Assembly (NCBI GenBank): GCA_018897435.1
Contig: JAHIKI010000049.1
Location: forward strand, 1-60,036
DNA length: 60,036 bases
Direction of reading: 5' to 3'
Source of the DNA: Acidobacteriota bacterium
GTDB taxonomy: Bacteria; Acidobacteriota; Aminicenantia; UBA2199
Numbering within the stretch: position 1 is the stretch's first letter; each line of letters starts with the position of its first letter. Under the pieces are notes generated by a model that saw only the letters and a program-made list of their open reading frames with translations, was not told where the DNA came from and searched no databases. Positions 3,174 through 60,036 of this stretch are shown piece after piece. Both the position numbers and the translations under genes were made by a program.

Positions 3174-3246
3174 GCGCCTGTAGCTCAACGGATAGAGCGT
3201 TGGCCTCCGGAGCCAAAGGCTATGGGTTCGAATCCCGTCAGGCGCG
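3174..3246 (+). tRNA. tRNA-Arg (anticodon CCG)
   Basis: Acceptor stem GCGCCTG/CAGGCGC, D-loop AGCTCAACGGATAGAGC, anticodon loop CTCCGGA, T-arm GGGTTCGAATCCC. No CCA is encoded. Confidence 0.9.
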
Positions 3247-28676: not shown

Positions 28677-28806
28677 CTCGTGATGCGTGAATGAACTTTC
28701 AGGACTTAGTGATGCGTAATGAGAAAGTAAAAGAAACCTCAAAAATTTTCAAGATATTGCTGTTTCTCATCACTCATTACATATTACTCATCACGAGAGC
28801 TCGCTG
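28677..28806. repeat. heptad-periodic hairpin element E4 (GTGATGC/GTGATGA type)
   Basis: Left arm is CTCGTGATGCGTGAATG...TTAGTGATGCGTAATGAGAAAG. Right arm is TTTCTCATCACTCATTACATATTACTCATCACGAGAGCTCG. Confidence 0.8.
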
Positions 28807-33184: not shown

Positions 33185-33520
33185 CGGTATAAGGTTTACG
33201 GTAGACGGTTTACGGTAAGAAAAGGCAAAGCACCAAGCTCCAAGCACCAAATAACAACTAAATTCCAAGCTCCAAATTCCAATGTCCTAAACAAAGAAGT
33301 GAATGGGTAGAAGGGTTAATGAGTTGAAGGGTTAAGAAAACCGAAATCGTTTGCTGTCATTGCCGTTGTCCCATCAACTCATCAACATTTGATTGCTCTC
33401 TTTGTTTTGGTCATTTGGATATTGGAATTTTGTGCTTGTTTTTGATTTGATGCTTGGGATATGGAATTTTTCTTTAGTTAACCGTCAAACGTACACCGTC
33501 AACCGTCTGCCGAGCTCGTT
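33185..33520. repeat. compound hairpin element E5: three heptad-periodic hairpins nested in one another
   Basis: Outer arms are GGTTTAC GGTAGAC GGTTTAC GG (33196-33218) and CCGTCAAACGTACACCGTCAACCGTC. Middle arms are CCAAGCT/CCAAATT type (33226-33296 and 33397-33468). Inner arms are GGGTAGA AGGGTTA ATGAGTT GAAGGGT (33306-33336) and CCCATCAACTCATCAAC. It ends with GAGCTCG. Confidence 0.8.
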
Positions 33521-39610: not shown

Positions 39611-39758
39611 CTTGTTGAAGGGTGAATGGGTTGAAGGGTTAAAGAGTTAGGAAAAAGCAATAGTTGAACTTTTTGCCTTAACACGTTAACTCTTGAACCC
39701 TTGAACTCTTCAACATTTCCGTTCTCTACTACGTCGAACCTCGAACATCGAACTTTTG
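39611..39758. repeat. heptad-periodic hairpin element E6 (GTTGAAG/GGGTTAA type)
   Basis: Left arm is GTTGAAG GGTGAAT GGGTTGA AGGGTTA AAGAGTT AGG. Right arm is CCTTAACACGTTAACTCTTGAACCCTTGAACTCTTCAAC. The tail is CGTCGAACCTCGAACATCGAAC. Confidence 0.8.
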
Positions 39759-40040: not shown

Positions 40041-40183
40041 AACTTAGTGATTAGTAAATAGTGATTAGTGAGTAGTTAAGAAAAGAGATTTAAATTATTA
40101 ATTGCTATAAATATGAATTTTGTTAAGTGTTGTTACCAATTACTAATCACCAATCACTTATTTCGTATCTCGCCAGTTCGCTT
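40041..40183. repeat. heptad-periodic hairpin element E7 (TTAGTGA type)
   Basis: Left arm is TTAGTGA TTAGTAA ATAGTGA TTAGTGA GTAGTTA AGAAAAG. Right arm is TTACCAATTACTAATCACCAATCACTTA. Confidence 0.75.
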
Positions 40184-42690: not shown

Positions 42691-42812
42691 TGAGTAATGA
42701 GTGATAAGTGATGAGAAACTGCATTGGAACGAAATATCCGCAAGATTCTTTTCTTTCTCATAACTCATCACTAAAGATCGCTGAGTTCGTTCACTCATCA
42801 CTCAGCCGAGTC
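42685..42812. repeat. heptad-periodic hairpin element E8 (GTGATGA type)
   Basis: Left arm CGTGATG AGTAATG AGTGATA AGTGATG AGAAAC contains the uvrA stop codon. Right arm is TTCTTTTCTTTCTCATAACTCATCAC. A linker TAAAGATCGCTGAGTTCGT is followed by TCACTCATCAC. Confidence 0.85.
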
Positions 42813-45930: not shown

Positions 45931-46671
45931 ATGGCTGCCGGTATCTTCCAGGCGGCGCGACTGCTGGCAGGCGCCGGCCATGTCACCGTGTTCAGCGGTG
46001 CCGGCATTTCGGTCGAAAGCGGCATTCCGCCTTTTCGAGGGGCCGGCGGCCTGTGGAGCATGGTGGATCCCGGTTTTATGGAGATCGACTATTTTCGCCG
46101 CCAGCCGGAACAATCCTGGTTGAGGATCAAGGAGATTTTTTACGATTATTTCGGCCGGGCCCTGCCCAACGATGCCCATTTCGGCGTGGCCGCCATGGAA
46201 AAAGCCGGGCTGGTCAAGGCGATCATCACCCAGAATATCGACAACCTGCACCAGCGCGCCGGCAGCCGTGAGGTTATCGAGTTCCACGGCAATTCACAAT
46301 GGCTGGTCTGCCTGGACTGCCTCGAGCGCGAGGCGGTGAGCCTCGGGCGGCTGGCTGTCCTGCCGCCGCGCTGCCCCTCCTGTGGGGGCCTGCTTAAGCC
46401 CGATTTTATTTTTTTCGGCGAGGGCATTCCGGAAAAGGCGCTGCAGCGTTCCTACCAGGAGGTTTCCCGGGCCGACGTTTTCCTGGTCATCGGCTCAAGC
46501 GGCGAGGTCATGCCGGCTTGCCAGATCCCGCCCCTGGCCAAGGCCCGCGGCGCCAAAATGATCGAGATCAACACCGTGGAGTCACATTTCACGCCTATCA
46601 GTGACATTTTCCTGAAGGGACCGGCGACGGAGACGGTTGGGGCTTTAGTCAAGGAACTTGGTATACGGTAG
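45931..46671 (+). CDS. cobB: NAD-dependent protein deacylase (Sir2 family)
   Basis: GAGISVESGIPPFRG, TQNIDNLHQRAG, zinc ribbon C..C...C..C (CLDC, CPSC) and catalytic H in EFHGN. Confidence 0.9.
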   Translation: MAAGIFQAARLLAGAGHVTVFSGAGISVESGIPPFRGAGGLWSMVDPGFMEIDYFRRQPEQSWLRIKEIFYDYFGRALPNDAHFGVAAMEKAGLVKAIITQNIDNLHQRAGSREVIEFHGNSQWLVCLDCLEREAVSLGRLAVLPPRCPSCGGLLKPDFIFFGEGIPEKALQRSYQEVSRADVFLVIGSSGEVMPACQIPPLAKARGAKMIEINTVESHFTPISDIFLKGPATETVGALVKELGIR

Positions 46672-46822
46672 ACGGTATACGGTTGACGGAAGAAAAAGAT
46701 TCAAATCCAAAGCTGCAAATCAGTGATAGTGATAGTGGTAGCGGAAATACATATTGATCGAATTTATATTTCGGATTTTTTGTTTTCCTAACACTAACAC
46801 TAACACTAACACTAACACAGTT
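46660..46822. repeat. hairpin element E9: unpaired GGTATAC-type left arm plus a hexamer-periodic inner hairpin
   Basis: GGTATAC GGTAGAC GGTATAC GGTTGAC GG spans the cobB stop codon. The inner arms are GTGATA GTGATA GTGGTA and (TAACAC)x5. Confidence 0.75.
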
Positions 46823-46869: not shown

Positions 46870-48915
46870 ATGCTAAAAAAGCTTCACAAACTCAACCTGG
46901 CCATTATCCTGTCGGCAGTAGCCGCCATTCTGGCTTACTTCTTTTTTCAGCCTGGCACTTTCCAGTTCTTCCTGTTGCTGACCATAATTCTCGCCTTTGT
47001 CCGCCTGCTGGGCATCATCCGCCGCCGCCTGCTCTGGAAGATCCGCAACCGGCTGATCATCTCTTCGCTGTTTTTCATCGTCACCCCCATCGTACTGATC
47101 ACGGTCTTTTTCTACCTGATCATCAACCTCATCATCACCCAGTACAACACGGCCATCTTCGAAAACCTGATGGTCAACGAGATCCGCTCCTTTGAAGAAA
47201 GCAGCGGCTATTACCTCGGCCTAGCCGACGATGTAAGGATCAAGCTCGAGGTGCAGCGTTTCAAAAACCGCAAGCCGCGTTTCCTGAACCTGGCTTTTTT
47301 CAAGGAGACGGACGGGCGCTACCAGGCGTTTTTTACCTATCCCGGGGACTTGCCCCTCGAGACATTCGATGCCAACGGCCCGCTGGCCAAGTTCCAAGCC
47401 GGCTATTTCAAGGTTGGCGGCGTTCTCTATCACGGCGTACATCAGCAGCGCGGCGGCTACGCGGCGCTGATTTTCGAGACCCTGAACCAGGAGTTTTTCG
47501 ACGCCATGCCGCCCATCGGCGACTTCAAGGTGCTGTTCATGGGTGCAGGCGGCAATACGCTCTCCGCCTCCTCGCAGGAGATGTCGGAGCGCCTCAACGA
47601 CAAGGATTTCGTCGGTTTCGAAAAATACCATTTCCCTTTTCCCTTCACCTTCCGCTTCTGGGATTTCGATGATCTGAAGAACGGGCAGCCCACCCTCAAG
47701 TTCAACATGTTCCTGCTGATCAACGACTATTCGAAGATCATGCAGAAACTGAAAACCTCTGACCGCGCCGCCATGCTGCAGGACCAGGCAAAGGTACTGG
47801 AAAAGGAGATCAGCCGCGGCGGCGACCAGGCTGCGCTCATGAGCAAAAGCCAGCAGTTGGACGAATTGAAAAAAGAACTTCAGGTGCTGCAAAAACGCGA
47901 CAGCCAGAGCTCGGTCTTTCCCATCTCGGTGCTGGTGCGTTTCATGCTCGGCCTGTTCGGCTTTTTCATTGTTATCTCCTTTTTCATCGGCTTGCGCATG
48001 GTGCGCGTCATCACCCGCGCCGTCAACGAGCTGACCAAGGGCACCGAAAAGATCCGCCGCGGTGATTTTTCCTACCGCATCCGCATCAAGTCGCAAGAGC
48101 AGATGCATTTCCTGGCCGAATCGTTCAATGACATGGCCTCCGGCATCGGCCGCCTGCTGAGCGAGGAAAAGGAAAAGCAGCGCTTGCAAGAGGAGCTGCG
48201 CATCGCCCGCGGTATCCAGCTGAAGCTGCTGCCCGCCGACCATTTCGCATGCCCGGAGTTTAACATCGCCGCGGTCAACATCCCGGCCACGGAGATCGCC
48301 GGCGATTATTTCGATTACTTTCACCGCCCCGGTAAATTCCTTTCGGTCCTGGTGGCCGACGTCTCGGGCAAGGGTGCCCAGGCTGCATTCTACATGGCCG
48401 AGCTGAAGGGCATCATGAACTGCCTGCAGAAGACCGGCCAGGAGCCGGCGGCCATCCTCAGCGAATGCAACGTCATCCTGCAGAGTTCTTTTGAGAAGGT
48501 CACCTTCATCACCATCAACCTGGTCCGTTTTGACCTGCAGAACAAGAACCTGATCTTTTCCCGGTCCGGCCACACGCCGGCCCTGTTTTACCAGAGCGAC
48601 AAGCAGGCCTGCCTGGAGCTGTCGCCGCACGGCATGGCCCTGGGGCTGAACAATTTCAGCCAGGAGGGCATCGAAGAGCTGCGTCTGCCATATCAAAGAG
48701 GCGATATCCTGTTCTTCTTTTCCGACGGTCTTTCCGAGATCATGAACCAGGAAGAGCAAATACTGGGCGTCGCCGAGTTGAAAAACATGCTGGTCGGCTA
48801 CGCCGCCCTTTCGGCGCTGGAGATCAAGGAGAAGATCCTGGCCCGGGCCATCGCTTTCGCCGCCGGCCAGGCCAACGCCGACGACCTGACCTTCGTGGTG
48901 ATGAAGGTTCGTTGA
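46870..48915 (+). CDS. membrane-bound PP2C-type phosphatase (HAMP + SpoIIE domains)
   Basis: N-terminal TM helices, a large extracytoplasmic region and a HAMP domain (LRMVRVITRAVNELTKGTEKIRRGD). The SpoIIE/PP2C domain has GDYFDY, DVSGKG and DGLSE. Confidence 0.85.
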   Translation: MLKKLHKLNLAIILSAVAAILAYFFFQPGTFQFFLLLTIILAFVRLLGIIRRRLLWKIRNRLIISSLFFIVTPIVLITVFFYLIINLIITQYNTAIFENLMVNEIRSFEESSGYYLGLADDVRIKLEVQRFKNRKPRFLNLAFFKETDGRYQAFFTYPGDLPLETFDANGPLAKFQAGYFKVGGVLYHGVHQQRGGYAALIFETLNQEFFDAMPPIGDFKVLFMGAGGNTLSASSQEMSERLNDKDFVGFEKYHFPFPFTFRFWDFDDLKNGQPTLKFNMFLLINDYSKIMQKLKTSDRAAMLQDQAKVLEKEISRGGDQAALMSKSQQLDELKKELQVLQKRDSQSSVFPISVLVRFMLGLFGFFIVISFFIGLRMVRVITRAVNELTKGTEKIRRGDFSYRIRIKSQEQMHFLAESFNDMASGIGRLLSEEKEKQRLQEELRIARGIQLKLLPADHFACPEFNIAAVNIPATEIAGDYFDYFHRPGKFLSVLVADVSGKGAQAAFYMAELKGIMNCLQKTGQEPAAILSECNVILQSSFEKVTFITINLVRFDLQNKNLIFSRSGHTPALFYQSDKQACLELSPHGMALGLNNFSQEGIEELRLPYQRGDILFFFSDGLSEIMNQEEQILGVAELKNMLVGYAALSALEIKEKILARAIAFAAGQANADDLTFVVMKVR

Positions 48916-49652
48916 TGGAAGAACTGGAAAAAAAACTGGGCTATCGTTTTAAGGATCGTGATCTGCTGCGCTCCGCTCTGACCCACAAATCGTTCAACGA
49001 AGGCGGCAAGAACCACGGCCTCGACAACGAGCGGCTGGAGTTCCTGGGCGATTCGGTTATCGGCCTGGTCATCACCGACTACCTGTACCGGCGCTGCCGG
49101 GACAACCGCGAGGGCGATCTGGCCAAGCTGCGCGCCCACCTGGTTTCGAGCAACCTGCTGTTCAAAGTGGCCAAGACCATCGGTTTGGGCGGCCACATCC
49201 TGCTCGGTCGCGGCGAGGAAAAGAACCAGGGCCGGCGCAATAGCAAGATCGTCTCCTCGTGCTTCGAAGGCCTGATCGGCGCCCTTTACCTGGATTCCGA
49301 CTTCGCTACCGCAACCGCGGTCATTGTCGAACGCTTCCGTGAATTCCTGGAGCAGCTGCTCAACAGCGAAATGCGCATCAACGACTACAAATCGGAGCTG
49401 CAGGAACTGATCCAGAAACACAAGAACATCCTGCCCGTTTACAAGGTGACGGCCGAGATCGGCAAGCCGCCCGACATGACGTTCCGTGTGGCCGTGTACC
49501 TGGAAAACAGCGAGATCGGCAGCGGTAGCGGCCGCAACCGCCGCGAAGCCGAGCAGGAAGCGGCATTGATCGCCCTGAAGAACATCGGCAATTTCATGAA
49601 TTTCGAAAAGCTGTCGGAAACGTTCTTCGCCGAAAAGCCCAAAGGCTCGTAG
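48912..49652 (+). CDS. rnc: ribonuclease III
   Basis: Signature NERLEFLGDSV, plus a C-terminal dsRBD (YKSELQELIQK...GSGSGRNRREAEQEAA). Confidence 0.95.
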   Translation: MMEELEKKLGYRFKDRDLLRSALTHKSFNEGGKNHGLDNERLEFLGDSVIGLVITDYLYRRCRDNREGDLAKLRAHLVSSNLLFKVAKTIGLGGHILLGRGEEKNQGRRNSKIVSSCFEGLIGALYLDSDFATATAVIVERFREFLEQLLNSEMRINDYKSELQELIQKHKNILPVYKVTAEIGKPPDMTFRVAVYLENSEIGSGSGRNRREAEQEAALIALKNIGNFMNFEKLSETFFAEKPKGS

Positions 49653-49750
49653 GAGCTCAGTGATTAGTAATTAGTGATGAGTGATTAGTTAAGAAATTAA
49701 ACGGAATTTACTGACTCTTTCTCTTTCCAGTCACTAATCATTTATTAAAG
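49653..49750. repeat. heptad-periodic hairpin element E10 (GTGATTA type)
   Basis: GAGCTC is followed by AGTGATT AGTAATT AGTGATG AGTGATT AGTTAAG AAA. The right arm TCTTTCTCTTTCCAGTCACTAATCA is short. Confidence 0.75.
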
Positions 49751-50038: not shown

Positions 50039-50205
50039 ATTAGTCGTGATGCGTTATGCGTAATGCGTGATGAGCATGAAAATTAACAGATCTAATCGTG
50101 ATGCGTTATGAGAAACAGCATGCTTCGATATACTCAGAAAAATTCTTTTCTTTCACATCACGTATTACGAAGTTCTGGCAGTTCGTTCACGCATCACGTA
50201 ATATG
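50039..50205. repeat. heptad-periodic hairpin element E11 (GTGATGC type, bipartite)
   Basis: Left arm is CGTGATG CGTTATG CGTAATG CGTGATG plus CGTGATGCGTTATGAGAAAC. Right arm is ATTCTTTTCTTTCACATCACGTATTACG. A linker AGTTCTGGCAGTTCGT is followed by TCACGCATCACG. Confidence 0.85.
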
Positions 50206-50557: not shown

Positions 50558-50566
50558 AAGCGCGAA

Positions 50567-50785
50567 CGATTGTAATTAGTAATGAGTAATGAGTGATAAG
50601 TGATGAGTGATGAGTGATGAGAAACCGCTTTAAAACGAAATATCAACAAGATTCTTTTTCTTTCTCATTACTCATCACTAAAGATCGTTGATTTCGTTCA
50701 CTCATCACTATAGTTCGTAAGGTCTTCTTTCTCATCACTCATCACTGAAGATCGCTGAGTTCGTTCACTCATCACTGATCTGCGA
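50567..50785. repeat. heptad-periodic hairpin element E12 (GTGATGA type, right module duplicated)
   Basis: The left arm has 8 heptads, GTAATTA..GTGATGA GTGATGA GAAAC. The right module TTCTTTCTCAT(T)ACTCATCACT(A/G)AAGATCG(T/C)TGA(T/G)TTCGTTCACTCATCACT occurs twice in tandem. Confidence 0.85.
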
Positions 50786-51573: not shown

Positions 51574-51730
51574 ATTCGTGATGAGTAATAAGTGATAAGT
51601 GATGAGCAGCGGCCAAGGATCGATCGAATGTAGTAACTCGCCACTTATCATGAAATTTCGATAACTTCAATTCATTGTTCACGTTAGATCGTTTATTATT
51701 CTTTCTCATTACTCATCACTCATCACGTAG
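51574..51730. repeat. heptad-periodic hairpin element E13 (GTGATGA type, long loop)
   Basis: Left arm is CGTGATG AGTAATA AGTGATA AGTGATG AG. The loop is about 88 nt. Right arm is ATTCTTTCTCATTACTCATCACTCATCACG. Confidence 0.8.
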
Positions 51731-51788: not shown

Positions 51789-52919
51789 ATGAGCATAACG
51801 GTCAAAGAAGTGCTGAACAAAAAAGACCTGAAAGCATTCGTCAAGCTGCCTTTTGCCATGTACAAGGACGACCCCATGTGGGTGCCGCAACTCATCCGCG
51901 ACGACATGGAGGTCTTCAACCGCGCCAAGAATCCGGCTTTCGACAATGCCGACGCCCGGCAGTTCCTGGCATACAAGGACGGTAAGGCGGTCGGGCGCAT
52001 CGCCGCCATCTTGAGCAGTGTTGCCAACCAGAAATACAACACCAGGAACCTGCGCTTCGGCTGGTTCGATGCTCCCAACGATCCCGCAGTGGCCGCCGCC
52101 CTGTTCAGGACCGTCGAGGCTTGGGCCAAAGAGTTGGGCATGGAGACGCTCACCGGCCCGCACGGCTTCTGCGACCTCGACCCCCAGGGCATGCTGGTCG
52201 AGGGTTTCGACCAACTTCCCACCATCGCCGGCTACTACAATTTTCCCTACTACCAGAAGCTGGTCGAAGATCTTGGCTTCCAGAAGGAGGTCGATTATGT
52301 CGAATTCCGCACCCATGTGCCGGAAATGTCGGCTTTTCCCGAAAAGCTGCTGCGCCTGGCCGAGCGCATCAAGGAGCGCGGCGGCCTGCGTGTGCTGAAG
52401 TTCGCCGCCAAAAAAGAGCTCCTGGGCCGCGCCGAGGAGCTGTTCCACCTGCTGGACGAGACCTTCGAGGAAATTTACGGCGCCGTGCCCCTGACCGAAA
52501 GGCAGATCCATTATTTCATCAAAAAATATTTTTCCTTCGTGGACAAGGACCTGATCCAGGCCGTGGTCAACGAGAAGGACGAGATGGTCGGCTTCATGAT
52601 CGCCATGCCCAACTTTTCGCGCGCCTTCCAGAAAGCCAGGGGCCGCCTGCTGCCCCTGGGCTGGTGGCACCTGCTGCGGGCCATAAAGAAGAACGACGTC
52701 CTGGATTTCTACCTGGCCGGCATCAAGAAAAACTACCGCGGCCAGGGGGTGGACCTGCTGATGGTGGTGGAAATGGCCCACAAGGCCATAGCCAAGGGCT
52801 TCCGCTACACCGAGAGCAACCAGGAGCTGGAGACCAACACCAAGATCCAGGCGCAGTGGAAATATTTCAATCCGGTCCAGCACAAAAGGAAAAGGATATT
52901 TAAAAAAGTGCTTAAATAA
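51789..52919 (+). CDS. GNAT-family N-acetyltransferase (long form)
   Basis: 376 aa. The C-terminal acetyl-CoA motif region is YLAGIKKNYRGQGVDLLMVVEMAHKA. The N-terminal family region is FVKLPFAMYKDDPMWVPQL. Confidence 0.7.
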   Translation: MSITVKEVLNKKDLKAFVKLPFAMYKDDPMWVPQLIRDDMEVFNRAKNPAFDNADARQFLAYKDGKAVGRIAAILSSVANQKYNTRNLRFGWFDAPNDPAVAAALFRTVEAWAKELGMETLTGPHGFCDLDPQGMLVEGFDQLPTIAGYYNFPYYQKLVEDLGFQKEVDYVEFRTHVPEMSAFPEKLLRLAERIKERGGLRVLKFAAKKELLGRAEELFHLLDETFEEIYGAVPLTERQIHYFIKKYFSFVDKDLIQAVVNEKDEMVGFMIAMPNFSRAFQKARGRLLPLGWWHLLRAIKKNDVLDFYLAGIKKNYRGQGVDLLMVVEMAHKAIAKGFRYTESNQELETNTKIQAQWKYFNPVQHKRKRIFKKVLK

Positions 52920-53054
52920 GGGAAGAGAGAGGGAAGAATTAGGGAAGAAAAAGGGAAGAGAGAGTAAGAAAGAAGAAGTTAATTGAAATTTTATCTTATT
53001 CTTACTTTGTCTTCCCTCATTTTTCCTTCTGCATTTCCCTCCTTCTTCCCTAAG
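52917..53054. repeat. heptad-periodic hairpin element E14a (GGGAAGA type), complete hairpin upstream of a 4HB gene
   Basis: Left arm GGGAAGA GAGAGGG AAGAATT AGGGAAG AAAAAGG GAAGAGA GAGTAAG AAAGAAG starts on the GNAT stop codon. Right arm is CTTACTTTGTCTTCCCTCATTTTTCCTTCTGCATTTCCCTCCTTCTTCCCTAAGG. Confidence 0.85.
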
Positions 53055-53065
53055 GAAAGGTTTCT

Positions 53066-53455
53066 ATGAATTGGAGAGATTTGCAAGTTTGGAAAAAGTC
53101 ACATTTATTGACCAAGCAAATTTATCAAATTACAAGGGGTTTTCCGAAAGAAGAAAGGTATGGATTGACCTCACAGATTCAAAGAGCTGCCTATTCTGTT
53201 CCACTCAATATCGTTGAAGGGCATAGCAGGAAAACTGCAAGGGAGTTTTTGCAGTATTTAAATATTGCACGTGGTTCCTTAGAAGAGTTACGGTATTTAT
53301 TGATGCTTGGATGTGAAATAGATTACATTTCGATTCCTGACAGGGAGAATTTGGAGAGTGCGGCCGCTGAGGTCTGTATCATGCTCGATGCCTTGATCAA
53401 ATCCTTGCAAAGAGGGAAAGCAAATCGAAGGAAAGTAGAGATATCGAAAAGTTAA
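53066..53455 (+). CDS. four-helix-bundle protein (23S rRNA intervening-sequence protein / Avd family), copy 1
   Basis: Family motifs L.VW, FPKEERYGLTSQIQRAAYSVPLNIVEG, EF..YL.IARGSLEEL. 129 aa. Confidence 0.9.
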   Translation: MNWRDLQVWKKSHLLTKQIYQITRGFPKEERYGLTSQIQRAAYSVPLNIVEGHSRKTAREFLQYLNIARGSLEELRYLLMLGCEIDYISIPDRENLESAAAEVCIMLDALIKSLQRGKANRRKVEISKS

Positions 53456-53463
53456 TGTATTCG

Positions 53464-53523
53464 CTTTTTCCTACTACTTCTTCCCTCATTCTTCCCTCCG
53501 GCTTTCCCTTTCTCTTCCCTTAA
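53464..53523. repeat. E14b: second GGGAAGA-type right arm downstream of 4HB copy 1
   Basis: CTTTTTCCTACTACTTCTTCCCTCATTCTTCCCTCCGGCTTTCCCTTTCTCTTCCCTTAA is about three-quarters identical by eye to the right arm at 52995-53054. Confidence 0.8.
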
Positions 53524-53537
53524 TTTATAATATTCAA

Positions 53538-53810
53538 ATGAGGACTTTTCACTACATCATATCCGGAAGGGTGCAGGGCGTATGCTTCCGTCACTACACG
53601 ATAAAAGAGGCTGAAAAATGGGGCATTTCCGGCACTGTCCGGAACCTGTCCAGCGGCGATGTCGAGGTTTTTGCCCAGGGAGACGATCCGGCTATTGCCC
53701 AATTTGAGTCATTTATACACATCGGCCCCAGGTCGGCTAATGTAGAAAAAGTGGAACGGGAAGTTCTGGATATCCAGGAAATTTTCAGGGGATTCGACAT
53801 AAGTTGGTAG
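53538..53810 (+). CDS. acyP: acylphosphatase
   Basis: 90 aa with the signature GRVQGVCFRHYT...GTVRN. TATAAT at 53526-53531 lies 6 nt before the ATG. Confidence 0.9.
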   Translation: MRTFHYIISGRVQGVCFRHYTIKEAEKWGISGTVRNLSSGDVEVFAQGDDPAIAQFESFIHIGPRSANVEKVEREVLDIQEIFRGFDISW

Positions 53811-54033
53811 AGCTTGGCAGTGGATTTCTCCCTTTTTCAGCATGATTTTTGTAAAAGGTGTGTAAAATGACGAAAATTGGCTATTGCATTGACAATCCCG
53901 GTTGGGTATGTTATTGAAATAAGTGTTTTTTGGAGGTTGCAAAGGGACTATACTCATTTTGAACACCATCTTACCTCCAACCGCTTTTTCGCCTGCCTCG
54001 CTGGAAGCCCGCAAGGGTCAGCGGCGGCAGCTT

Positions 54034-54114
54034 AGTTTGAAGAAAGTAATTAGTTAAGAAAATAAAATGCTACGAAGAAAGTGATTAGTGATTAGTGATG
54101 AGTGATTAGAAAAG
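54034..54114. repeat. E15a: AGTAATT-type arm plus GTGATTA-type left arm upstream of 4HB copy 2
   Basis: AGTTTGAAGAAAGTAATTAGTTAAGAAAA is followed by AGTGATT AGTGATT AGTGATG AGTGATT AGAAAAG (54080-54114). Confidence 0.8.
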
Positions 54115-54115
54115 A

Positions 54116-54568
54116 ATAAACCGATCAATAATGATACAAGGCCACCGAGATCTGAATGTTTGGAAAAGAAGTATGGAACTGGTTGAGGATCTCTATCAAT
54201 GTACTAAGGACTTTCCGAAAGAGGAAATTTATTCCCTGACTTCCCAAATTCGCCGTTCTGTCGTTTCGATACCCAGTAATATTGCTGAAGGAGCTGCCCG
54301 AAATTCAAAAAAGGAATTTATCCAGTTTCTCCACATTGCCCTCGGGTCCACCTCAGAACTTGAAACTCAATTGATCATCTCGGGTCGACTGGGATATCTG
54401 AAAGAAACTTCTGGGCATCTGAACAAATTGGATGAAATCAAAAAAATGCTGCTGGGCCTCTTGTCATTTGTCAAAAAGAACAAATAAAAAATTGTCATAT
54501 GCATTTTCTCTTCACTCAGCACTCTTTCTCATCACTAATCACTCATCACGCATCACTTATAACCGATC
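54116..54568 (+). mobile_element. candidate insertion cassette (4HB gene plus one right arm) bounded by the direct repeat ATAA(A)CCGATC inside a hairpin loop
   Basis: ATAAACCGATC lies at 54116-54126 and ATAACCGATC at 54559-54568. Removing the interval leaves a canonical left arm-loop-right arm element. Confidence 0.35.
54131..54487 (+). CDS. four-helix-bundle protein (23S rRNA IVS protein / Avd family), copy 2
   Basis: DLNVWKRS, FPKEEIYSLTSQIRRSVVSIPSNIAEGAAR, EFIQFLHIALGSTSELETQL. 118 aa. Confidence 0.9.
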   Translation: MIQGHRDLNVWKRSMELVEDLYQCTKDFPKEEIYSLTSQIRRSVVSIPSNIAEGAARNSKKEFIQFLHIALGSTSELETQLIISGRLGYLKETSGHLNKLDEIKKMLLGLLSFVKKNK

Positions 54569-54620
54569 GAGGACTTATGTATTTTCTCATCACTCATCAC
54601 TCATCACTTATCACTTATAA
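54504..54620. repeat. E15b: two GTGATGA-type right arms downstream of 4HB copy 2
   Basis: CTTTCTCATCACTAATCACTCATCACGCATCACTT, then the linker ATAACCGATCGAGGACTTATGT, then ATTTTCTCATCACTCATCACTCATCACTTATCACTTATAAT. Confidence 0.85.
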
Positions 54621-56393: not shown

Positions 56394-56663
56394 ATGCACA
56401 ATCCTGAAATAACCAAATTCATCCACGAACACAGCCAGTATTTCTGGTATACCCCGGAGACTGAAAAGGAAAACATCAGCCCGGAATTGCTGCTGGAAAC
56501 CATATTGAATGATGGCGACATGGATGCCGTTCGCGAACTTTTCAAGGTCATGGGCATAAAAAACGCGGCCAGCGTGTTTTTCAGTGCTGCCGGCAGAAAA
56601 AAAATGAATTACTATCCCGAAATTTATCATTTCTTTTCACTGCTTTTCAAACGCCATGCATAA
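56394..56663 (+). CDS. small protein, putative partner (antitoxin?) of the downstream nucleotidyltransferase
   Basis: 89 aa. It overlaps the downstream AbiEii-like gene by 8 nt and has its own consensus promoter. I recognise no family. Confidence 0.5.
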   Translation: MHNPEITKFIHEHSQYFWYTPETEKENISPELLLETILNDGDMDAVRELFKVMGIKNAASVFFSAAGRKKMNYYPEIYHFFSLLFKRHA

Positions 56664-57270
56664 GGAAATCCTCAACACCGATCAGCTTGAGCTACTGGCG
56701 CTGGTGAGGAATTTTAAGCCCGAATTTTTCCTGGTGGGCGGCACGGCCATAGCCCTTCATATCGGTCACCGCCGTTCCAATGATTTCGATCTTTTTAAAA
56801 ACGGCGAATTGCGCCACAAAAAAATACTCGATACCGTAAAAACACACGGATTTCCGGTTCAGGTCACCCGCCGGGTAAGCGAACAGTTGAACCTGACAAT
56901 TAGTGGAGTGAAATTCACGTTTTTCGATTATCCTTTTCCCATAAAACCTGTTTGCGTGTTTGAAAACGTGATCGAACTTCCCGATATTTTGACTTTGGCG
57001 GCGATGAAGGCCTATGCTTTGAGCCGGCGTTCCAAGTGGAAGGATTACGTCGATCTGTATTTTATCATCAGGCACCATCATTCAATCGCAGAGATTTCCG
57101 CCAAAGCCGGCGCTATTTTCGGCGAACTTTTCTCGGAAAAAATGTTCCGGGCCCAATTGAGCTTTTTCGAAGACATCGACTTTACCGAGCCTTTGGAATA
57201 TTTGCCGCCCGCTGTTCCGGAAACTGTAATAAGGGAGTTCCTTGTCGAAAGGGCCACGGCGGTGATTTAG
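56656..57270 (+). CDS. nucleotidyltransferase, AbiEii/AbiGii toxin family (type IV TA-like)
   Basis: 204 aa. GGTAIALHIGHRRSNDFDLF matches the family's G-G-T-A...R.S.D.D nucleotidyltransferase core. Confidence 0.7.
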   Translation: MHKEILNTDQLELLALVRNFKPEFFLVGGTAIALHIGHRRSNDFDLFKNGELRHKKILDTVKTHGFPVQVTRRVSEQLNLTISGVKFTFFDYPFPIKPVCVFENVIELPDILTLAAMKAYALSRRSKWKDYVDLYFIIRHHHSIAEISAKAGAIFGELFSEKMFRAQLSFFEDIDFTEPLEYLPPAVPETVIREFLVERATAVI

Positions 57271-57302: not shown

Positions 57303-57491
57303 ATGCGCAATTCAAAACTAATTGCTAAAAAAAAAGAAAGGGAGATCCTGAAGTTGAGCAGGCTGACGCCGGAGGAACGGCTGAAAGAACAGGTAAAACT
57401 TAATGTCCGCATCAAAGAACTATTCTTTGCCGGCTTGAGCAGCAAGGGATTTTCCCGGACTGAGATCATCCGCTTGTGGAAGACAAAATGA
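57303..57491 (+). CDS. small basic protein, putative partner of the downstream nucleotidyltransferase
   Basis: 62 aa. Its stop overlaps the ATG at 57488 (ATGA). Confidence 0.4.
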   Translation: MRNSKLIAKKKEREILKLSRLTPEERLKEQVKLNVRIKELFFAGLSSKGFSRTEIIRLWKTK

Positions 57492-58024
57492 ACAAAACCA
57501 ATTTAGCGAAGATACTCAAGGCCTTTCACCTACTGAAGATCCCCTTTGCCTTGGCCGGCGGCCATGCTGTCGCGGCCTGGGGAGTTGTGCGCGCCACCCG
57601 GGATATCGACTTCCTGGCCGATGCCGCAGGCGAGCTGGCGGCCAAACTGGTCCTTGAGTTGAAAAAAGCCGGTTTTAGCCTCGTTTTCCGTAAGGGTGAC
57701 GAAGCAGATCCTCTGCGGGGAGTGATCCATGTGGAAATGAAAGGTTCTGCTGACGATGAGCTTGTGGACATCGTCCTGGGCATCCGGAACATGCCTCAGG
57801 GTATTTTCGAGCGATCTCTTGCGCTTGATTTTCTAGGCCTTGAGATCCCCACCGTTGCTCCCGAAGACATGATTATTCTCAAGTGCCTGGCCGGCGGTCC
57901 AATCGACCTGGAGGATGCGCGATCAATCCTTTTCATAATGAAGAAGCGTCTGGACATGAAATACTTAGAGCGAGAGTTGAAGCGCTGCCGGATTTCGCTG
58001 CAAAAGCTGGAACAAGGAAGATGA
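57488..58024 (+). CDS. nucleotidyltransferase-fold protein (MNT/DUF6036-like)
   Basis: FALAGGHAVAAWGVVRATRDIDFL is a minimal nucleotidyltransferase motif. An alternative start lies at 57476. Confidence 0.6.
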   Translation: MNKTNLAKILKAFHLLKIPFALAGGHAVAAWGVVRATRDIDFLADAAGELAAKLVLELKKAGFSLVFRKGDEADPLRGVIHVEMKGSADDELVDIVLGIRNMPQGIFERSLALDFLGLEIPTVAPEDMIILKCLAGGPIDLEDARSILFIMKKRLDMKYLERELKRCRISLQKLEQGR

Positions 58025-58164
58025 GAAAATGAGTAAATGTGGCAATCGCAATAGAATAGAACTATTGCTGTTCTCTTTTTTCATTTACCCTTCTACCCAT
58101 CTACCCTTTTACCCATTTACTTCTTTTCTCATCAACTCATCTACCCATTTACCCATCTACAAGG
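58020..58164. repeat. heptad-periodic hairpin element E16 (GGGTAGA type, short left arm and long right arm)
   Basis: The left arm GATGAGAAAATGAGTAAATGTGG covers the stop codon. The loop contains the hairpin GCAATAGAATAGAACTATTGC. The right arm has 11 heptads, TCATTTA CCCTTCT ACCCATC TACCCTT TTACCCA ... Confidence 0.8.
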
Positions 58165-58174
58165 ATAAATTTTT

Positions 58175-59140
58175 ATGACAAAAACTGCTAAAAACTTCGC
58201 TCTCACCGGCGCTGCAGGCTATGTTGCTCCCCGCCATCTCCAGGCGATCCATGATACCGGTAACACTTTGGTCGCCGCTCTCGACCGTTCTGATTCGGTC
58301 GGCATTTTAGACCGTTTCTTTCCTAAAGCCAACTTTTTTACGGAGTTTGAGCGGTTCGACAGGCATATCGAGAAGTTGAGACGGCTGGGAGAGGGGAATC
58401 GCATCGACTATGTGTCGATTTGTGCTCCCAACTACCTTCATGACGCCCACATCCGCTTTGCCCTGCGTGTGGGAGCGGACGCGATTTGTGAAAAGCCGCT
58501 GGTGCTCAATCCCTGGAATATTGACGCATTACGGGAAATGGAGGAGGAGACGGGGCGCAGGGTGTGGACTGTTCTGCAATTGCGGCTCCATCCCGCCTTG
58601 AGAGAACTCAAGAAACAGGTTGAGCAAGCTCCTGACGGGAAAAAGCATGAAATCGACCTGACCTATATCACCTCCCGGGGGAGTTGGTATGCTGTCTCCT
58701 GGAAGGGAGATATCGAAAAATCCGGAGGGATCGCCACCAATATAGGCGTCCACTTTTTCGACATGTTGCTCTGGATATTCGGGCCATTAATCCGACTGGA
58801 GGTCCATCTGTCCACCCCGGAGAAGGCTGCCGGATTCATGGAATTGTCCAAAGCTCGGGTGCGTTGGTTTCTGTCGCTTGCTGCGGACGATCTCCCCGTC
58901 GGGTTCCTGGAGGCTAAGAAGTGCACCTATCGCAGCTTGACCGTAAATGGAAAGGAGACGGAATTCTCTGAAGGCTTCACAGACCTGCATACCGCTGTCT
59001 ATCGGGAGACATTGGGCGGCCGGGGCTTCGGCCTTGAAGATTCCCGCCCATCGATCCAGGTCGTCCACGATATCCGCCATGCAGTGCCAGTTGGTCTGAA
59101 AGGGGAGTATCATCCAATGGCGAAGATCGTGAAAGGGTAG
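58175..59140 (+). CDS. wbpB: UDP-N-acetyl-2-amino-2-deoxy-D-glucuronate oxidase (WbpB-like, Gfo/Idh/MocA family)
   Basis: Long collinear matches to P. aeruginosa WbpB as I recall it: NFALTGAAGYVAPRH, YVSICAPNYLH, DLTYITSRGSWY, TNIGVHFFDML, EFSEGFTDLHT. Confidence 0.8.
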   Translation: MTKTAKNFALTGAAGYVAPRHLQAIHDTGNTLVAALDRSDSVGILDRFFPKANFFTEFERFDRHIEKLRRLGEGNRIDYVSICAPNYLHDAHIRFALRVGADAICEKPLVLNPWNIDALREMEEETGRRVWTVLQLRLHPALRELKKQVEQAPDGKKHEIDLTYITSRGSWYAVSWKGDIEKSGGIATNIGVHFFDMLLWIFGPLIRLEVHLSTPEKAAGFMELSKARVRWFLSLAADDLPVGFLEAKKCTYRSLTVNGKETEFSEGFTDLHTAVYRETLGGRGFGLEDSRPSIQVVHDIRHAVPVGLKGEYHPMAKIVKG

Positions 59141-59305
59141 ATGGGTAGAAGGGTAGACGAGTAGACGGGAAAACGAGTAGACGAGTAGACGAGAAAACGA
59201 GAAGACGGGGAGCCGCAAAGTTCGATCTATTGAATTTTTCTCTTCTCTCATTCACTCGTACACTCGTTCACCGTTCCACCCTTCCACTCATTTACTCTAT
59301 TACCT
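59135..59305. repeat. heptad-periodic hairpin element E17 (GGGTAGA/GAGTAGA type) upstream of 4HB copy 3
   Basis: Left arm GGGTAGA TGGGTAG AAGGGTA GACGAGT AGACGGG AAAACGA GTAGACG AGTAGAC GAGAAAA CGAGAAG ACGGGGA covers the wbpB stop codon. The loop is CCGCAAAGTTCGATCTATTG. The right arm is TTCTCTTCTCTCATTCACTCGTACACTCGTTCACCGTTCCACCCTTCCACTC. Confidence 0.85.
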
Positions 59306-59309: not shown

Positions 59310-59672
59310 ATGATCGAACAAGTAAAAACCCACAAAGACCTAGACGTTTGGAAATTAGGTCTGGCATTTGTAAAAGATATCTATGTGGCTACCAAGAAAT
59401 TTCCACCTGAAGAAATGTATGGATTGACTTCGCAATTACGACGAGCAGCAGTTTCCGTCCCTACAAATATTGCCGAAGGTGCTGCAAAAAATACGAGGAA
59501 AGATTTCGTCAAATTTTTATATATCTCTTTGGGATCTCTCGCAGAGATCGAGACTTTACTATATATTTCTGAGTCGCTTAATTATTGTGAAATATCTTCA
59601 TTGATGGATTCAAGCACTCGAATTAGAATGAAGTTATTGAATTTGATTAAGTATCAAAAAAGTAAAATATGA
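59310..59672 (+). CDS. four-helix-bundle protein (23S rRNA IVS protein / Avd family), copy 3
   Basis: DLDVWKLG, FPPEEMYGLTSQLRRAAVSVPTNIAEGAAK, DFVKFLYISLGSLAEIETLL. 120 aa. Confidence 0.9.
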   Translation: MIEQVKTHKDLDVWKLGLAFVKDIYVATKKFPPEEMYGLTSQLRRAAVSVPTNIAEGAAKNTRKDFVKFLYISLGSLAEIETLLYISESLNYCEISSLMDSSTRIRMKLLNLIKYQKSKI

Positions 59673-60036
59673 AAATGAGTAAACGAGTTGACGAGTATAC
59701 GGGAAGACGAGAAAATGAGTAAACGAGTATACGAGAAGACGAGAAAATGAGTAAACGAGTATACGAGAAGACGAGAAAATGAGTAAACGAGTAGACGAGT
59801 ATACGGGTAAACGGGAAGCAGCAAAAGTTCGATCTATTGCGGTTTTCTCTTCCCTCGTCCACCCTTCCACTCGTACACCCGTTTACAAGCAAGCGTTTTC
59901 TCTTCCCTCGTCCACCCTTCCACTCGTACACCCGTTTACAAGCAAGCGGTTTCTCTTCCCTCGTCCACCCTTCCACTCGTACACCCGTTTACAAGCAAGC
60001 GGTTTCTCTTCCCTCGTCCACCCTTCCACTCGTACA
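59671..60036. repeat. hairpin element E18 with tandemly amplified arms, truncated by the window end
   Basis: The left side has about 4 tandem units of GAAAATGAGTAAACGAGTATACGAGAAGACGA (32-nt period in the middle copies). The loop CAGCAAAAGTTCGATCTATTGCGG is near-identical to the E17 loop. The right side repeats a 53-bp unit TTCTCTTCCCTCGTCCACCCTTCCACTCGTACACCCGTTTACAAGCAAGCG(G)T starting at 59845, 59898, 59951 and 60004. Confidence 0.85.

Follow-up and report, generated by a model that had tools for sequence, protein, structure and literature searches.

The window, by which is meant the whole stretch of 60,036 nt that was analysed, carries three genes for four-helix-bundle proteins, all on the + strand: copy 1 at 53066–53455 (129 aa, GC3 0.40), copy 2 at 54131–54487 (118 aa, GC3 0.43) and copy 3 at 59310–59672 (120 aa, GC3 0.31). 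These ORFs match PF05635 with E-values of 1.4e-36, 6e-40 and 1.1e-33, respectively, all three are above the cutoff for TIGR02436 (copy 1 at 1.9e-34), and PDB 2GSC is matched at 5e-27. They therefore belong to the same family as the protein of the 23S rRNA intervening sequences (IVS), and both the positions and the family membership proposed in the first-pass annotation are borne out. A six-frame HMM scan found no fourth PF05635 copy in the window. Pairwise identity among the three paralogs is only ~40%, and their GC3 of 0.31–0.43, against 0.7–0.8 in the host genes, is a foreign composition. The near-invariant polar residues are W11, Y22, Q39, R42, S46, N50, E53, S73 and E76, and the predicted pI of the proteins is basic, at ~9.1–9.5. 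The window also encodes RNase III (48912–49652); no rRNA is present on the contig.

Copy 1 is preceded by a complete local hairpin and followed by a second right arm. The purine-rich left arm (52917–52978, +), found by TRF as ~5 copies of the 11-nt unit AGGGAAGAAAG, begins at the stop codon of the preceding gene. It is closed by the proximal right arm R1 (52995–53054, +), with 53 predicted pairs and matching stretches of 28 nt at 82% and 26 nt at 85%. The distal right arm R2 (53464–53525, +) repeats R1 in direct orientation (77%) and is complementary to the left arm over 30 nt at 83% and 22 nt at 91%. In the MFE fold R2 pairs with the outer left arm, so that the predicted closing stem encloses the gene (z = −6.2).

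Copy 2 lies in the loop between its arms. The left arm (54079–54113, +; 4.3 copies of the heptad AGTGATT) can pair with 54525–54558 (34 nt, 85%) in the proximal right arm R1 (54504–54558, +) and with 54582–54616 (35 nt, 91%) in the distal right arm R2 (54582–54618, +), which a gap of 15 nt separates from the start of a sugar dehydrogenase gene. A closing stem around the gene is predicted here as well, the left arm and R2 being paired in the MFE fold, but the module as a whole is only marginally more stable than its shuffles (z = −1.75). An identical L-gene-R-R arrangement is found in relative L082.

Copy 3 is placed between two hairpins with arms built of an 8-nt unit, GAGTAGAC. The upstream hairpin (59129–59300, +) is complete, with an octad left arm at 59129–59212, whose first octad includes the stop codon of the preceding gene, and a right arm at 59241–59300; its loop carries AAGTTCGATCTATTG at 59218–59232. 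In near-identical strains the left arm differs by a 23-nt indel, or ~3 octads. The downstream hairpin (59671–60036, +) has an octad left arm at 59671–59818, the loop motif at 59825–59839 and a right arm made of 3.7 copies of a 53-nt unit, cut by the end of the window and contig. Both loops contain AAGTTCGATCTATTG without a mismatch, and none of 100 shuffles gave as many matches as were observed. The three arm configurations and the near-identical loops had been described correctly at first pass; the description of the arms as heptads holds for copy 2 and fails for copy 1, with its 11-nt units, and for copy 3, with its octads.

Hairpins with no ORF, recognised by their inverted repeats and in several cases by TRF, are present throughout the window. 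An AGTGATG type at 42685–42802 (+), whose first heptad contains the upstream stop codon, belongs to a dispersed family recognised by direct as well as inverted repeats, with further copies at 50593–50709, 28706–28796 (− strand) and 3001–3088 and four in L082. The hairpin at 50563–50783 (+), also of AGTGATG type, is 86–94% identical to it and has duplicated right arms, while the AGTGATK type at 2998–3120 (+) contains within its loop the copy 3 motif reversed, with one mismatch. A GGAATTT type at 26018–26183 (−) shares 87% identity with a hairpin at a non-orthologous site of relative L001. Three nested hairpins at 33185–33510 (+; repeats at 85–92% identity) comprise an outer CGGTAGA type in + orientation, a middle one (33228–33470) that is a copy of 26018–26183 in reverse orientation, and an inner one (33298–33395) placed exactly at the apex of the middle hairpin, in its loop. 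Relatives L084 and L085 have a divergent PF05635 gene flanked by arms of the same type as those of the AAGGCAAA hairpin at 27601–27886 (+; 214-nt loop), and in relative L081 a hairpin resembling that at 58011–58160 (+), which is of the copy 3 arm family (GGTAGATG type), comes after the dehydrogenase gene. The others are at 39614–39714 (+; GTTGAAGG octads), 40044–40161 (+; TTAGTGA heptads), 49659–49745 (+; AGTGATT heptads, immediately 3' of the RNase III gene), 50045–50200 (+; CGTGATG heptads) and 51577–51727 (+; GTGATAA/CTCATCA heptads, 105-nt loop), together with an orphan CGGTAGA left arm at 46660–46693 (+) that contains the upstream stop codon and has a hexamer-unit hairpin 3' of it (46722–46818, +). 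Between 39.6 and 60 kb most co-directional intergenic gaps are filled by such hairpins in sense orientation. The loops of the ORF-less hairpins hold no coding remnants and no target-site duplication was seen, so that a MITE-like origin by internal deletion is not supported. Nor was a clean empty site found.

Since hairpins fill most intergenic gaps, adjacency to the three genes is not significant within the window: arrays occupy 5 of the 6 gaps next to them and 12 of 22 at other window genes (Fisher p = 0.21). It is the matching of the arms around each gene, rather than adjacency in itself, that exceeds chance here: the arms of the three genes score ~55 or more, whereas non-cognate pairs of upstream and downstream flanks score at most 23. 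Across genomes the association is strong. Among 76 PF05635 loci from many phyla, the inverted similarity of the flanks exceeds that of every non-cognate pair in 71%, compared with 3% for displaced controls; with true gene boundaries, matched inverted flanks are seen in 69%, compared with 10% of other genes. The proposal that hairpins are commoner beside these genes therefore holds between genomes but falls short of significance in the window alone. Tandem arrays cover 25–39% of the first 50 nt from the gene and ~1.5% beyond 500 nt, with periods of 7 nt in 101 arrays and 8 nt in 32. L-gene-R is the dominant layout, and ~30% of family members are without detectable matched arms.

The same association is found in an independent sample of 80 loci, for which a host gene rather than the PF05635 gene served as the basis of selection. 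All 14 PF05635 genes in this sample have an array within 200 nt, and 0.7% of the bases contain 30 of the 246 arrays (p = 3e-27). ORF-less arrays reach a density of 0.41 per kb in loci with a PF05635 gene and 0.045 per kb in those without, a nine-fold difference, as expected from the earlier suggestion that they accompany the genes. Of eight complete plasmids from cultured isolates, seven have the gene-plus-arms layout. Plasmid matches of the family are dominated by Nostocales, and the family gene of Anabaena sp. 90 directly adjoins a heptad array of ~330 nt. The association spans at least ten phylum-level groups, so that the stem-ORF-stem layout outside rRNA, first noted in this window, is real and general. 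The arm unit differs at almost every locus, arms being matched within a locus and different between loci. Except among near-orthologs, similar proteins do not go with similar heptad units, which argues against simple sequence-specific recognition.

It is hardly credible that the adjacency is a by-product of a hairpin-saturated genome or that the genes are remnants of DGR (Avd) systems. The former fits the window-only comparison of gaps; it is contradicted by the cross-genome statistics and by arms that match within, and differ between, loci. The latter draws on weak matches to Avd models, and Avd is indeed a distant homologue: a basic, pentameric four-helix bundle that works with nucleic acid. 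However, Avd adjoins a reverse transcriptase and TR/VR repeats, neither of which was found in the window (reverse transcriptase judged from Pfam tables for ~7.3–60 kb), and the Avd equivalog model gives 44 bits for copy 1 and 29 bits for copy 2, below its cutoff of 80, and no match for copy 3. The one genuine DGR Avd inspected, beside the reverse transcriptase of Pseudomonas phage Bise (n = 1), is without tandem-repeat arms. Membership in DGR Avd proper is thus not supported for these genes.

The cassettes have a consistent polarity. The upstream arm is G/purine-rich (G>C) in 44 of 47 loci, and in the window the G-rich arm comes first in all 12 hairpins between co-directional + genes. Neighbours are co-oriented with the gene in 65 of 75 loci upstream and 60 of 75 downstream; some family genes are antisense to their neighbours. 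No σ70 promoter was found on the gene strand of the cassettes, the sole promoter-like site being antisense within copy 2, and no terminator-like site in arms or spacers, the only one lying inside the copy 1 ORF. Arm mismatches are not enriched in G.U-compatible relative to A.C types (83 and 78 across loci; 29 and 35 in the window), and the sequence does not therefore favour sense-strand RNA pairing over pairing at the DNA level. One compensatory arm change was seen.

This lack of bias would suit hairpins acting as DNA, in single-stranded or cruciform form, that are moved by a trans-acting enzyme of IS200/IS605 or RAYT type (HUH) or by host recombination, with the genes as passengers. So would the insertion of hairpins at the apices of others, the right-arm direct repeats flanking copy 1, where the divergence described below stops at the arms, and the want of any mobility enzyme linked to the cassettes. 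Such a mechanism is nevertheless quite unlikely, as strict polarity with respect to both the ORF and host transcription would not be expected of it, unless this reflects replication direction, and a passenger should vary, whereas one protein family is tied to the arms across at least ten phylum-level groups. In addition, the Pfam tables, which cover ~7.3–60 kb of the window, contain no HUH-type or other transposase, recombinase or reverse transcriptase.

Comparison with relatives, of which the five closest are non-independent samples, shows turnover. Copy 1 is missing in L082, the copy 2 site of L001 holds a different paralog with different arms, and the site after the stop codon of the dehydrogenase gene shows at least six different states among the window and seven relatives. 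At orthologous sites of 80–90% nucleotide identity the cassette or the arm type differs, or is missing. Identity to L001 is 71–78% over 53060–53530 and 92–97% in the flanks, a divergence valley comprising the ORF and distal arm; R1 of copy 1 is 92–94% identical and R2 lies inside the valley. Third-codon identity is 0.55 in the four-helix-bundle gene, compared with 0.85 and 0.71 in its neighbours, while second positions are at 0.87–0.96; the protein is under purifying selection. The multi-copy, loop-nested hairpins at non-orthologous sites support some form of mobility or exchange. Cassettes are inserted in unrelated operons (cas, nrd and polysaccharide; rRNA in other species).

These data also bear on the possibility that the hairpins serve the host as regulatory or structural RNA, in the form of REP/BIME-like processing, stabilising or insulating stems with the protein as their cognate RNA-binding factor; the pair would then be a domesticated system and not a selfish or mobile cassette. 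A role for the protein might then be, for example, to modulate RNase III access. A host function of this kind would account for sense-oriented hairpins in most co-directional gaps from 39.6 to 60 kb, for a basic protein under purifying selection, for a copy 1 upstream hairpin that is better conserved than the gene itself, and for the co-occurrence of genes and ORF-less arrays. It is unlikely, given the foreign GC3, paralogs of only ~40% identity, the differing contents of orthologous sites, hairpins nested within hairpin loops and insertion into unrelated operons. Arms that change at nearly every locus are a poor fit to one regulator with one operator.

The location of the family gene within cyanobacterial cas operons, tandem repeats directly 5' of a small gene and two AbiEii toxin-antitoxin pairs in the neighbourhood could indicate a unit for toxin-antitoxin control or anti-phage defence, in which a repeat RNA would control the helical protein in the style of type III toxin-antitoxin systems. 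From its Pfam clan assignment the four-helix-bundle protein is presumably HEPN-clan-like. This is nonetheless very improbable: the Rx4-6H motif is not present in the alignment of the three proteins, PADLOC gives no match, and inverted arms lie to either side of the gene in place of a single direct array with a terminator. Furthermore, the Coxiella homologue caused no growth defect in E. coli (PMC4990558).

Several known repeat systems share part of this organisation. Integron cassettes, consisting of an ORF and an attC hairpin, are likewise small ORFs without a promoter, set between imperfect repeats that can form hairpins; they too run in the direction of read-through transcription, and one cassette takes the place of another at a fixed site when related genomes are compared. 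In the window, however, there is no integrase (Pfam tables for ~7.3–60 kb), attI or array, the arms are tandem short repeats, and the cassettes are scattered singly among housekeeping genes. REPIN-RAYT systems, reportedly described by Bertels and Rainey in 2011 as REP doublets with REP-associated tyrosine transposases, also have a single-copy-type gene between inverted hairpin-forming repeats and many ORF-less intergenic copies in the genome. They differ in that the window gene encodes a ~120-aa four-helix bundle without HUH/Y1 motifs, that its arms are tandem arrays of a locus-specific unit where a REPIN has one conserved REP per genome, and that several diverged gene copies occur per genome. 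The cyanobacterial STRR, said to have been described by Mazel et al. in 1990, are intergenic tandem heptamer repeats. Similar TAACTGA repeats occur in Beggiatoaceae, Cyanobacteria and Bacteroidetes (PMC4679880). Both resemble the arms in their tandem 7-nt intergenic units, orientation relative to the downstream gene and phyla, but the literature treats them as direct arrays with possible translational roles; the latter report has one inverted-repeat set only and no mention of 'four helix', 'S23' or 'intervening' (PMC4679880).

The closest likeness proposed at first pass, to bona fide IVS, extends to the repeats. In the 23S rRNA IVS of Leptospira, Coxiella burnetii, Xanthomonas and Brucella (helix 45), an ORF for the PF05635 'S23p' protein, sense to the host transcript and of lower GC than the host, lies between terminal inverted repeats, which pair as a stem. 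In Coxiella the IVS carries three tandem purine-rich GACAGAT heptamers 5' of the ORF, strain-variable in copy number, and a 28-bp stem that RNase III cuts at the first heptamer, and IVS distribution is sporadic, suggesting horizontal transfer (PMC4990558). The window cassettes differ in lying in the spacers and leaders of protein-coding operons, often beginning at the upstream stop codon, in their several diverged copies per locus, often-duplicated right arms and many ORF-less hairpins, and in that RNase III cleavage, demonstrated for the IVS, is for them only inferred.

On balance, and by a narrow measure, it is probable that the three loci are copies of one IVS-type module established in operon spacers and leaders outside rRNA. 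Overall the first-pass interpretation is partly supported. Weighing against the module are the unbiased arm mismatches, the marginal fold of copy 2, the missing target-site duplications and clean empty sites, the want of a recombinase, transposase or reverse transcriptase in ~7.3–60 kb of the window, the heptad units that vary independently of the protein, and the family members that have no matched arms or are antisense to their neighbours. The cassette would be transcribed by read-through from host genes, no promoter or terminator of its own having been detected, and the transcript arms would pair into a 30–60 bp stem around the ORF. Pairing of the tandem units in several registers would let the stem survive gains and losses of units. 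The RNase III encoded in the window would cut this stem, as in rRNA IVS, and release the insert from the host RNA on either side, the ends of which would not be rejoined, so that insertion would be nearly neutral wherever RNA continuity is dispensable. The cassette (ORF and distal arm) and the ORF-less hairpins may be exchanged or dispersed among hairpin sites, with hairpin loops and the very 3' ends of host ORFs as preferred targets. The basic, probably pentameric protein may bind nucleic acid at the arms. That the gene-plus-arms unit recurs in many phyla suggests a selfish cassette of wide distribution, for the most part undescribed. The Coxiella ORF is apparently untranslated and decaying (PMC4990558), and the protein may therefore be dispensable in some settings.

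The first-pass annotation had proposed three four-helix-bundle (4HB) genes, and these were confirmed at 53066–53455 (copy 1), 54131–54487 (copy 2) and 59310–59672 (copy 3), all on the + strand. All three ORFs match PF05635 (E 1e-34 to 6e-40, 116–136 bits, cutoff 33.8) and TIGR02436 (112–132 bits, cutoff 24), and a six-frame HMM scan identified no further family member in the 60-kb window. The proteins share only about 40% pairwise identity. The GC3 of the three genes is 0.31–0.43, as against 0.7–0.8 in the surrounding genes.

The arms that flank these genes are inverted tandem repeats of short units, here called left (L, upstream) and right (R, with R1 proximal and R2 distal). The three configurations described from the sequence are borne out, copy 1 being L-R-gene-R, copy 2 L-gene-R-R, and copy 3 lying between two complete hairpins. 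At each gene the arms on both sides belong to a single type (GGGAAGA, AGTGATT or GAGTAGAC). The stem of copy 1 pairs the left arm with R2 (30 nt at 83%), the left arm of copy 2 is complementary to the distal right arm (35 nt at 91%), and the inverted repeats of copy 3 extend over 33 nt at 76%; MFE folds close the stem around the ORF for copies 1 and 2. The description of the arms as heptads is true of copy 2, but the unit is 11 nt at copy 1 and 8 nt at copy 3, therefore 'heptad' can only be used as a loose term. The loops of the two copy 3 hairpins are indeed alike, with an exact AAGTTCGATCTATTG in each. The loop motif TTCGATCWATTG marks only a local sub-family, and was present in 0 of the 80 loci searched across genomes.

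Approximately 15 hairpins of the same build without a 4HB gene (ORF-less hairpins) fill most of the intergenic gaps longer than 150 nt, especially at 39.6–60 kb. Because they occupy most of the longer gaps, hairpins are not significantly commoner beside 4HB genes within the window alone (5 of 6 gaps by 4HB genes, 12 of 22 by others, p = 0.21), an enrichment on which the first-pass annotation had made its proposal depend. The window is a MAG contig that ends inside the last arm repeat. This is a 53-nt right-arm tandem repeat at 59839–60036, with 3.7 copies that are 97–99% identical, and suggests an assembly break at the repeat. The gene on the copy 3 side of the contig end is carried by four independent assemblies.

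In other genomes the association of 4HB genes with arms is present across phyla. A scan with the three paralogs, using one genome per species, gave 80 loci, 76 of them usable, from Bacteroidota, Desulfobacterota, Acidobacteriota, Planctomycetota, Campylobacterota, Bacillota, Patescibacteria and others. When 200 nt upstream of the gene were aligned to the reverse complement of 200 nt downstream, cognate flank pairs of the 76 loci had a median score of 31 (maximum 96) and non-cognate pairs 16 (maximum 23), with 71% of loci beating every non-cognate pair versus 3% of same-locus displaced controls. At real gene boundaries matched flanks were found in 69%, compared with 10% for other genes and 13% for other small genes. 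Arrays of period 5–12 take up 25–39% of the sequence within 50 nt of the gene on either side, and about 1.5% at distances above 500 nt; 101 arrays have a period of 7, 32 of 8 and 3 of 11, and periods of 6 or 9 hardly occur. Arrays occur in 63 of 81 gene-adjacent gaps and in 57 of 146 other gaps (p = 2e-8). A second sample, of 80 metagenomic loci, was picked through the neighbouring sugar dehydrogenase rather than the 4HB gene. The three-paralog HMM found 14 family members there, all 14 with an array within 200 nt, and the bases flanking 4HB genes, 0.7% of the total, hold 30 of the 246 arrays (p = 3e-27).

The third sample consisted of complete plasmids of cultured isolates. The module layout is present on plasmids of Nostoc, Stanieria, Geminocystis, Picosynechococcus, Gemmatirosa and Riemerella, and weakly in Calothrix, the Gemmatirosa locus having the L-R-gene-R form of copy 1. 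This recurrence on complete plasmids rules out an assembly artefact as the source of the layout. Plasmids gamma and alpha of Nostoc sp. PCC 7120 encode an identical 4HB protein (WP_010994075.1) with CTCTGCC heptads downstream; on both, the gene is immediately preceded by the conserved 3'-terminal part of a transposase-like ORF, which on gamma is assigned to the ISL3 family, and neither plasmid shows a left arm at that position.

Several rules hold for the module. L-gene-R is the dominant layout and the reverse is rare. Of 47 loci, 44 have more G than C in the upstream arm on the coding strand, and in 45 that arm is rich in purines. Almost every locus has a unit sequence of its own, and its two arms agree with each other: rotational Hamming distances between units are mostly 0–2 within a locus and average 3.4 between loci. 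Arms have a median of 4.4–4.6 units. A protein-to-heptad 'code' was rejected, the unit distance dropping only for pairs with more than 70% protein identity. Polarity extends to the ORF-less copies in the window. All 12 hairpins between co-directional + genes have the G-rich arm first, and the family copy at 28706–28796, which lies between − genes, is inverted. Stop codons of host ORFs lie inside the first arm units at 27600–27602, 42688–42690, 46669–46671 and 59138–59140, therefore the insertions reach into the 3' ends of ORFs; the stop-codon content of arm units is only mildly above that of shuffled units. In the relatives L001, L081 and L083–L085, the C-terminal tail of the sugar dehydrogenase encoded downstream of copy 2 is specified by whichever arm has inserted.

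The anatomy and polarity of the window module are the same as those of the Coxiella burnetii 23S rRNA intervening sequence (IVS). That IVS lies in helix 45, encodes a protein of the same 4HB family and has terminal inverted repeats that form a closing 28-bp stem (PMC4990558). Upstream of its ORF are an SD-like sequence and then three tandem GACAGAT heptamers, their number varies among strains, and RNase III cuts at the start of the first heptamer (PMC4990558). The window ORFs likewise encode 23S_rRNA_IVP / four-helix-bundle proteins (PF05635, TIGR02436), inverted repeats able to form an ORF-enclosing stem are present at copies 1–3, and tandem units of 7, 8 or 11 nt stand upstream of the ORFs in place of the Coxiella heptamers. 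Unit number varies here too: assemblies that are otherwise identical differ by a 23-nt (three-octad) indel in the copy 3 left arm, which parallels the strain-variable heptamer number. Among the defining IVS features, the one missing from the window copies is the rRNA location, as they are not inserted in helix 9, 25 or 45 of 23S rRNA. Their flanks are protein-coding genes, which upholds the claim of a stem-ORF-stem layout outside rRNA. An approximate conserved 23S probe from near helix 45 matched 0 of 164 loci, and for IVS arms the comparison therefore relies on published descriptions.

The evidence best supports an IVS-type cassette, a 4HB ORF with its arms, that resides in operon spacers. 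The neighbouring genes are co-oriented with the 4HB gene in 65 of 75 loci upstream and 60 of 75 downstream. The arms and spacers showed no gene-strand sigma-70 promoter and no terminator-like site; inside the ORFs there are one antisense promoter-like and one terminator-like site. The cassette would be transcribed by read-through, its arms would pair around the ORF in the transcript, and RNase III would then sever the insert from the host RNA. RNase III cleavage has been shown experimentally for rRNA IVSs (PMC4990558), and by analogy the window cassettes may be cleaved in the same way; from the predicted folds, a stem would form around the ORF in vivo. The prerequisites for such excision are present as long predicted stems and an RNase III gene at 48912–49652. 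This gene, with Ribonuclease_3 and dsrm domains, is directly followed by a heptad hairpin at 49659–49745.

Alternatively, the arms may pair at the DNA level instead of the RNA level. Arm mismatches of the G.U and A.C types, compared to separate the two levels, show no asymmetry across 49 loci (83 and 78) or in the window (29 and 35 in 22 arm pairs, these being 19 hairpins and 3 long-range pairs around copies 1 and 2), and this absence of a preference for G.U-compatible changes fits pairing as DNA. The strict polarity of the arms relative to the ORF and to transcription, however, argues for some strand-specific constraint.

Turnover of the cassettes can be followed in seven relative loci of about 80–90% nucleotide identity (L001, L002 and L081–L085). 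The copy 1 cassette is kept in L001, and in its place L082 has an ORF-less AGTGATG-type hairpin. At the copy 2 site L001 carries a different PF05635 paralog with different arms (CGGTAGA). The site just past the dehydrogenase stop codon has at least 6 different states among the window and the seven relatives. Nothing is inserted there in the window. In relatives it holds an ORF-less hairpin of either of two kinds, an orphan left arm, a copy-1-like gene, a divergent PF05635 gene with AAGGCAAA arms (L084), or a gene of the L084 kind with AAAGTAT arms; L085 has the left arm and gene of L084, its contig ending before the downstream arm. Between the window and L001, the flanks of copy 1 including the upstream complete hairpin are 92–97% identical, identity is 71–78% exactly over 53060–53530, which comprises the ORF and the distal right arm, and then returns to 91–93%. 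Third-codon identity of the copy 1 ORF is 0.55, versus 0.85 and 0.71 in the neighbouring genes, and second-position identity stays at 0.87. From these alignments, the divergence valley probably reflects a diverged allele having taken the place of an 'ORF + distal arm' unit, the protein being under purifying selection.

The ORF-less hairpins form families of their own. The hairpin at 42685–42802 resembles that at 50593–50709 at 86–94%, and 26029–26177 resembles 33239–33470 at 85–92%. Exactly at the apical loop of 33239–33470 sits another hairpin, and 33239–33470 itself lies within the loop of a third; the hairpin at 26025–26177 is 87% identical to one at a non-orthologous site in L001. At one arm position, two family copies show a compensatory A-U to C-G change. 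The 214-nt loop (27637–27850) of a AAGGCAAA-type hairpin carries three stem-loops on C6/G6 runs, which are a different kind of repeat.

Gene order also differs among the relatives. In L002 (5940–6032) an octad left arm directly abuts a copy-3-like gene, and at window 58011–59300 the same arm family is split around a Gfo/Idh/MocA oxidoreductase gene; this suggests a gene-order change by recombination at hairpins. In polysaccharide loci the arms coincide with hot spots of changing gene order. The window has two AbiEii/nucleotidyltransferase-type toxin-antitoxin pairs (56394–57270 and 57303–58024) between its dehydrogenase and oxidoreductase genes. The first has no nucleotide match in L083 or L002; in L083 the dehydrogenase is followed directly by the 57303 homologue, and L002 has a different gene order.

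The module differs from the known systems that it resembles. The link to the DGR accessory variability determinant (Avd) drawn in the first-pass annotation does not apply to copies 1–3 as Avd proper. The Avd equivalog NF033474 gives 44.4 and 28.6 bits for copies 1 and 2 (cutoff 80) and no match to copy 3, the Pfam tables contain no RVT family for about 7.3–60 kb of the window, and no long direct repeat pair of the template/variable (TR/VR) type is present in the window. In the one example considered, a real DGR Avd beside the reverse transcriptase of Pseudomonas phage Bise has no such arms. In REPIN-RAYT systems the flanked gene is an HUH/Y1 (IS200-like) transposase, whereas the sole Pfam matches of the window ORFs are PF05635 and, below cutoff for copies 1 and 2, bAvd-like (PF22296). 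These systems also have one conserved repeat per genome, scattered in inverted doublets, in contrast to at least 6 arm-unit types in this window alone, where hairpin sub-families with conserved loops do exist. Integrons differ in that the Pfam tables for about 7.3–60 kb list no integrase or recombinase family, and an IntI/attI array is absent; nor do these tables list a transposase. No defence-system model matches in the window.

As to the suggestion that gene-bearing and ORF-less copies relate as autonomous and miniature elements, the two kinds do co-occur. ORF-less arrays more than 400 nt from any 4HB gene are nine-fold denser in loci with the gene (0.41 versus 0.045 per kb, p = 1.5e-7), several of these loci being relatives of this genome and not all independent. 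Against it, tblastn with 79 family members found no coding remnants of the 4HB gene in ORF-less loops (best off-target E = 0.035), and an origin of these hairpins by deletion is thus unsupported. No target-site duplication was recognised at the junctions compared among relatives, which include no clean empty site.

It is conceivable, though rather doubtful, that PF05635 proteins and tandem-heptad hairpins together make up one widespread, previously unrecognised class of mobile cassette, with the protein as mobility factor and with rRNA IVSs and ORF-less hairpins included. The protein would then be an element-encoded factor in a mechanism without transposase, integrase or reverse transcriptase, with hairpin loops and the 3' ends of ORFs as the targets of exchange. 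The 23S rRNA IVSs would be just those copies that landed in rRNA, and ORF-less heptamer hairpins, including the STRR-type repeats of cyanobacteria, would be non-autonomous partners. Should all of this be a single element class, rRNA IVSs would represent one particular case of a cassette able to reside in any transcript with dispensable continuity.

The closest solved structure to the 4HB protein is Xanthomonas XCC0516 (PDB 2GSC, E 5e-27, five chains), whose four-helix bundles form a homopentameric toroid according to the literature. With a pI of about 9.1–9.5 the 4HB protein is basic, and it has a near-invariant polar constellation of Q39, R42, S46, N50, E53, S73 and E76. It is hypothesised that it binds to the arms; the match of five subunits to about 4.5 units per arm may be coincidence. 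The family comprises 35,583 clusters at 50% identity (E <= 1e-3). Many database members are 150–170 aa long with a domain start at residue 30–50, and the start codons of these 'extended' members have probably been mis-called inside the upstream arm.

The rRNA IVS, its ORF and the Coxiella heptamers are already published, and intergenic heptamer repeats are known in cyanobacteria, Beggiatoaceae and Bacteroidetes (PMC4679880). In the literature, of which coverage was incomplete so that an earlier description is possible, none was found of a PF05635 gene with inverted tandem arms outside rRNA and across phyla, of the polarity rule, of cassette-like replacement, or of the co-occurrence of 4HB genes and ORF-less hairpins. 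The module bears on the nature and origin of ORF-bearing rRNA IVSs, a question dating from about 1990–93, on the nature of the tandem heptamer repeats in those three groups, and on the role of the very large PF05635 family, for which there are two structural-genomics structures.

Among other features of the window, a conserved non-coding leader at 53811–54040 is 89–96% identical to L001. Within it are a promoter-like site, TTGACA-17-TATGTT, and, immediately ahead of the copy 2 left arm, the motif GGCGGCAGC; the sugar-dehydrogenase operon probably has its promoter and leader here. Neither this leader nor the hairpins match any Rfam family, the only Rfam matches in the window being two tRNA genes at 3174–3246 (+) and 15859–15931 (−). 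The first of these starts about 50 nt past the hairpin at 2998–3120.

Tandem-unit arrays may be mistaken for CRISPR or yield apparent CRISPR associations. On cyanobacterial plasmids, 4HB genes are found inside cas operons (cas6-4HB-cas4 and cmr2-4HB-cmr3), at loci from Anabaena sp. 90 pANA02 (L167, 1125–1863), Pseudanabaena (L174) and Picosynechococcus (L176). Such positions may underlie the CRISPR association of '23S rRNA IVP' that PMC10910872 gives in a figure legend. The Anabaena sp. 90 gene is accompanied by a GGTGACA/GGGAACA array of about 330 nt.
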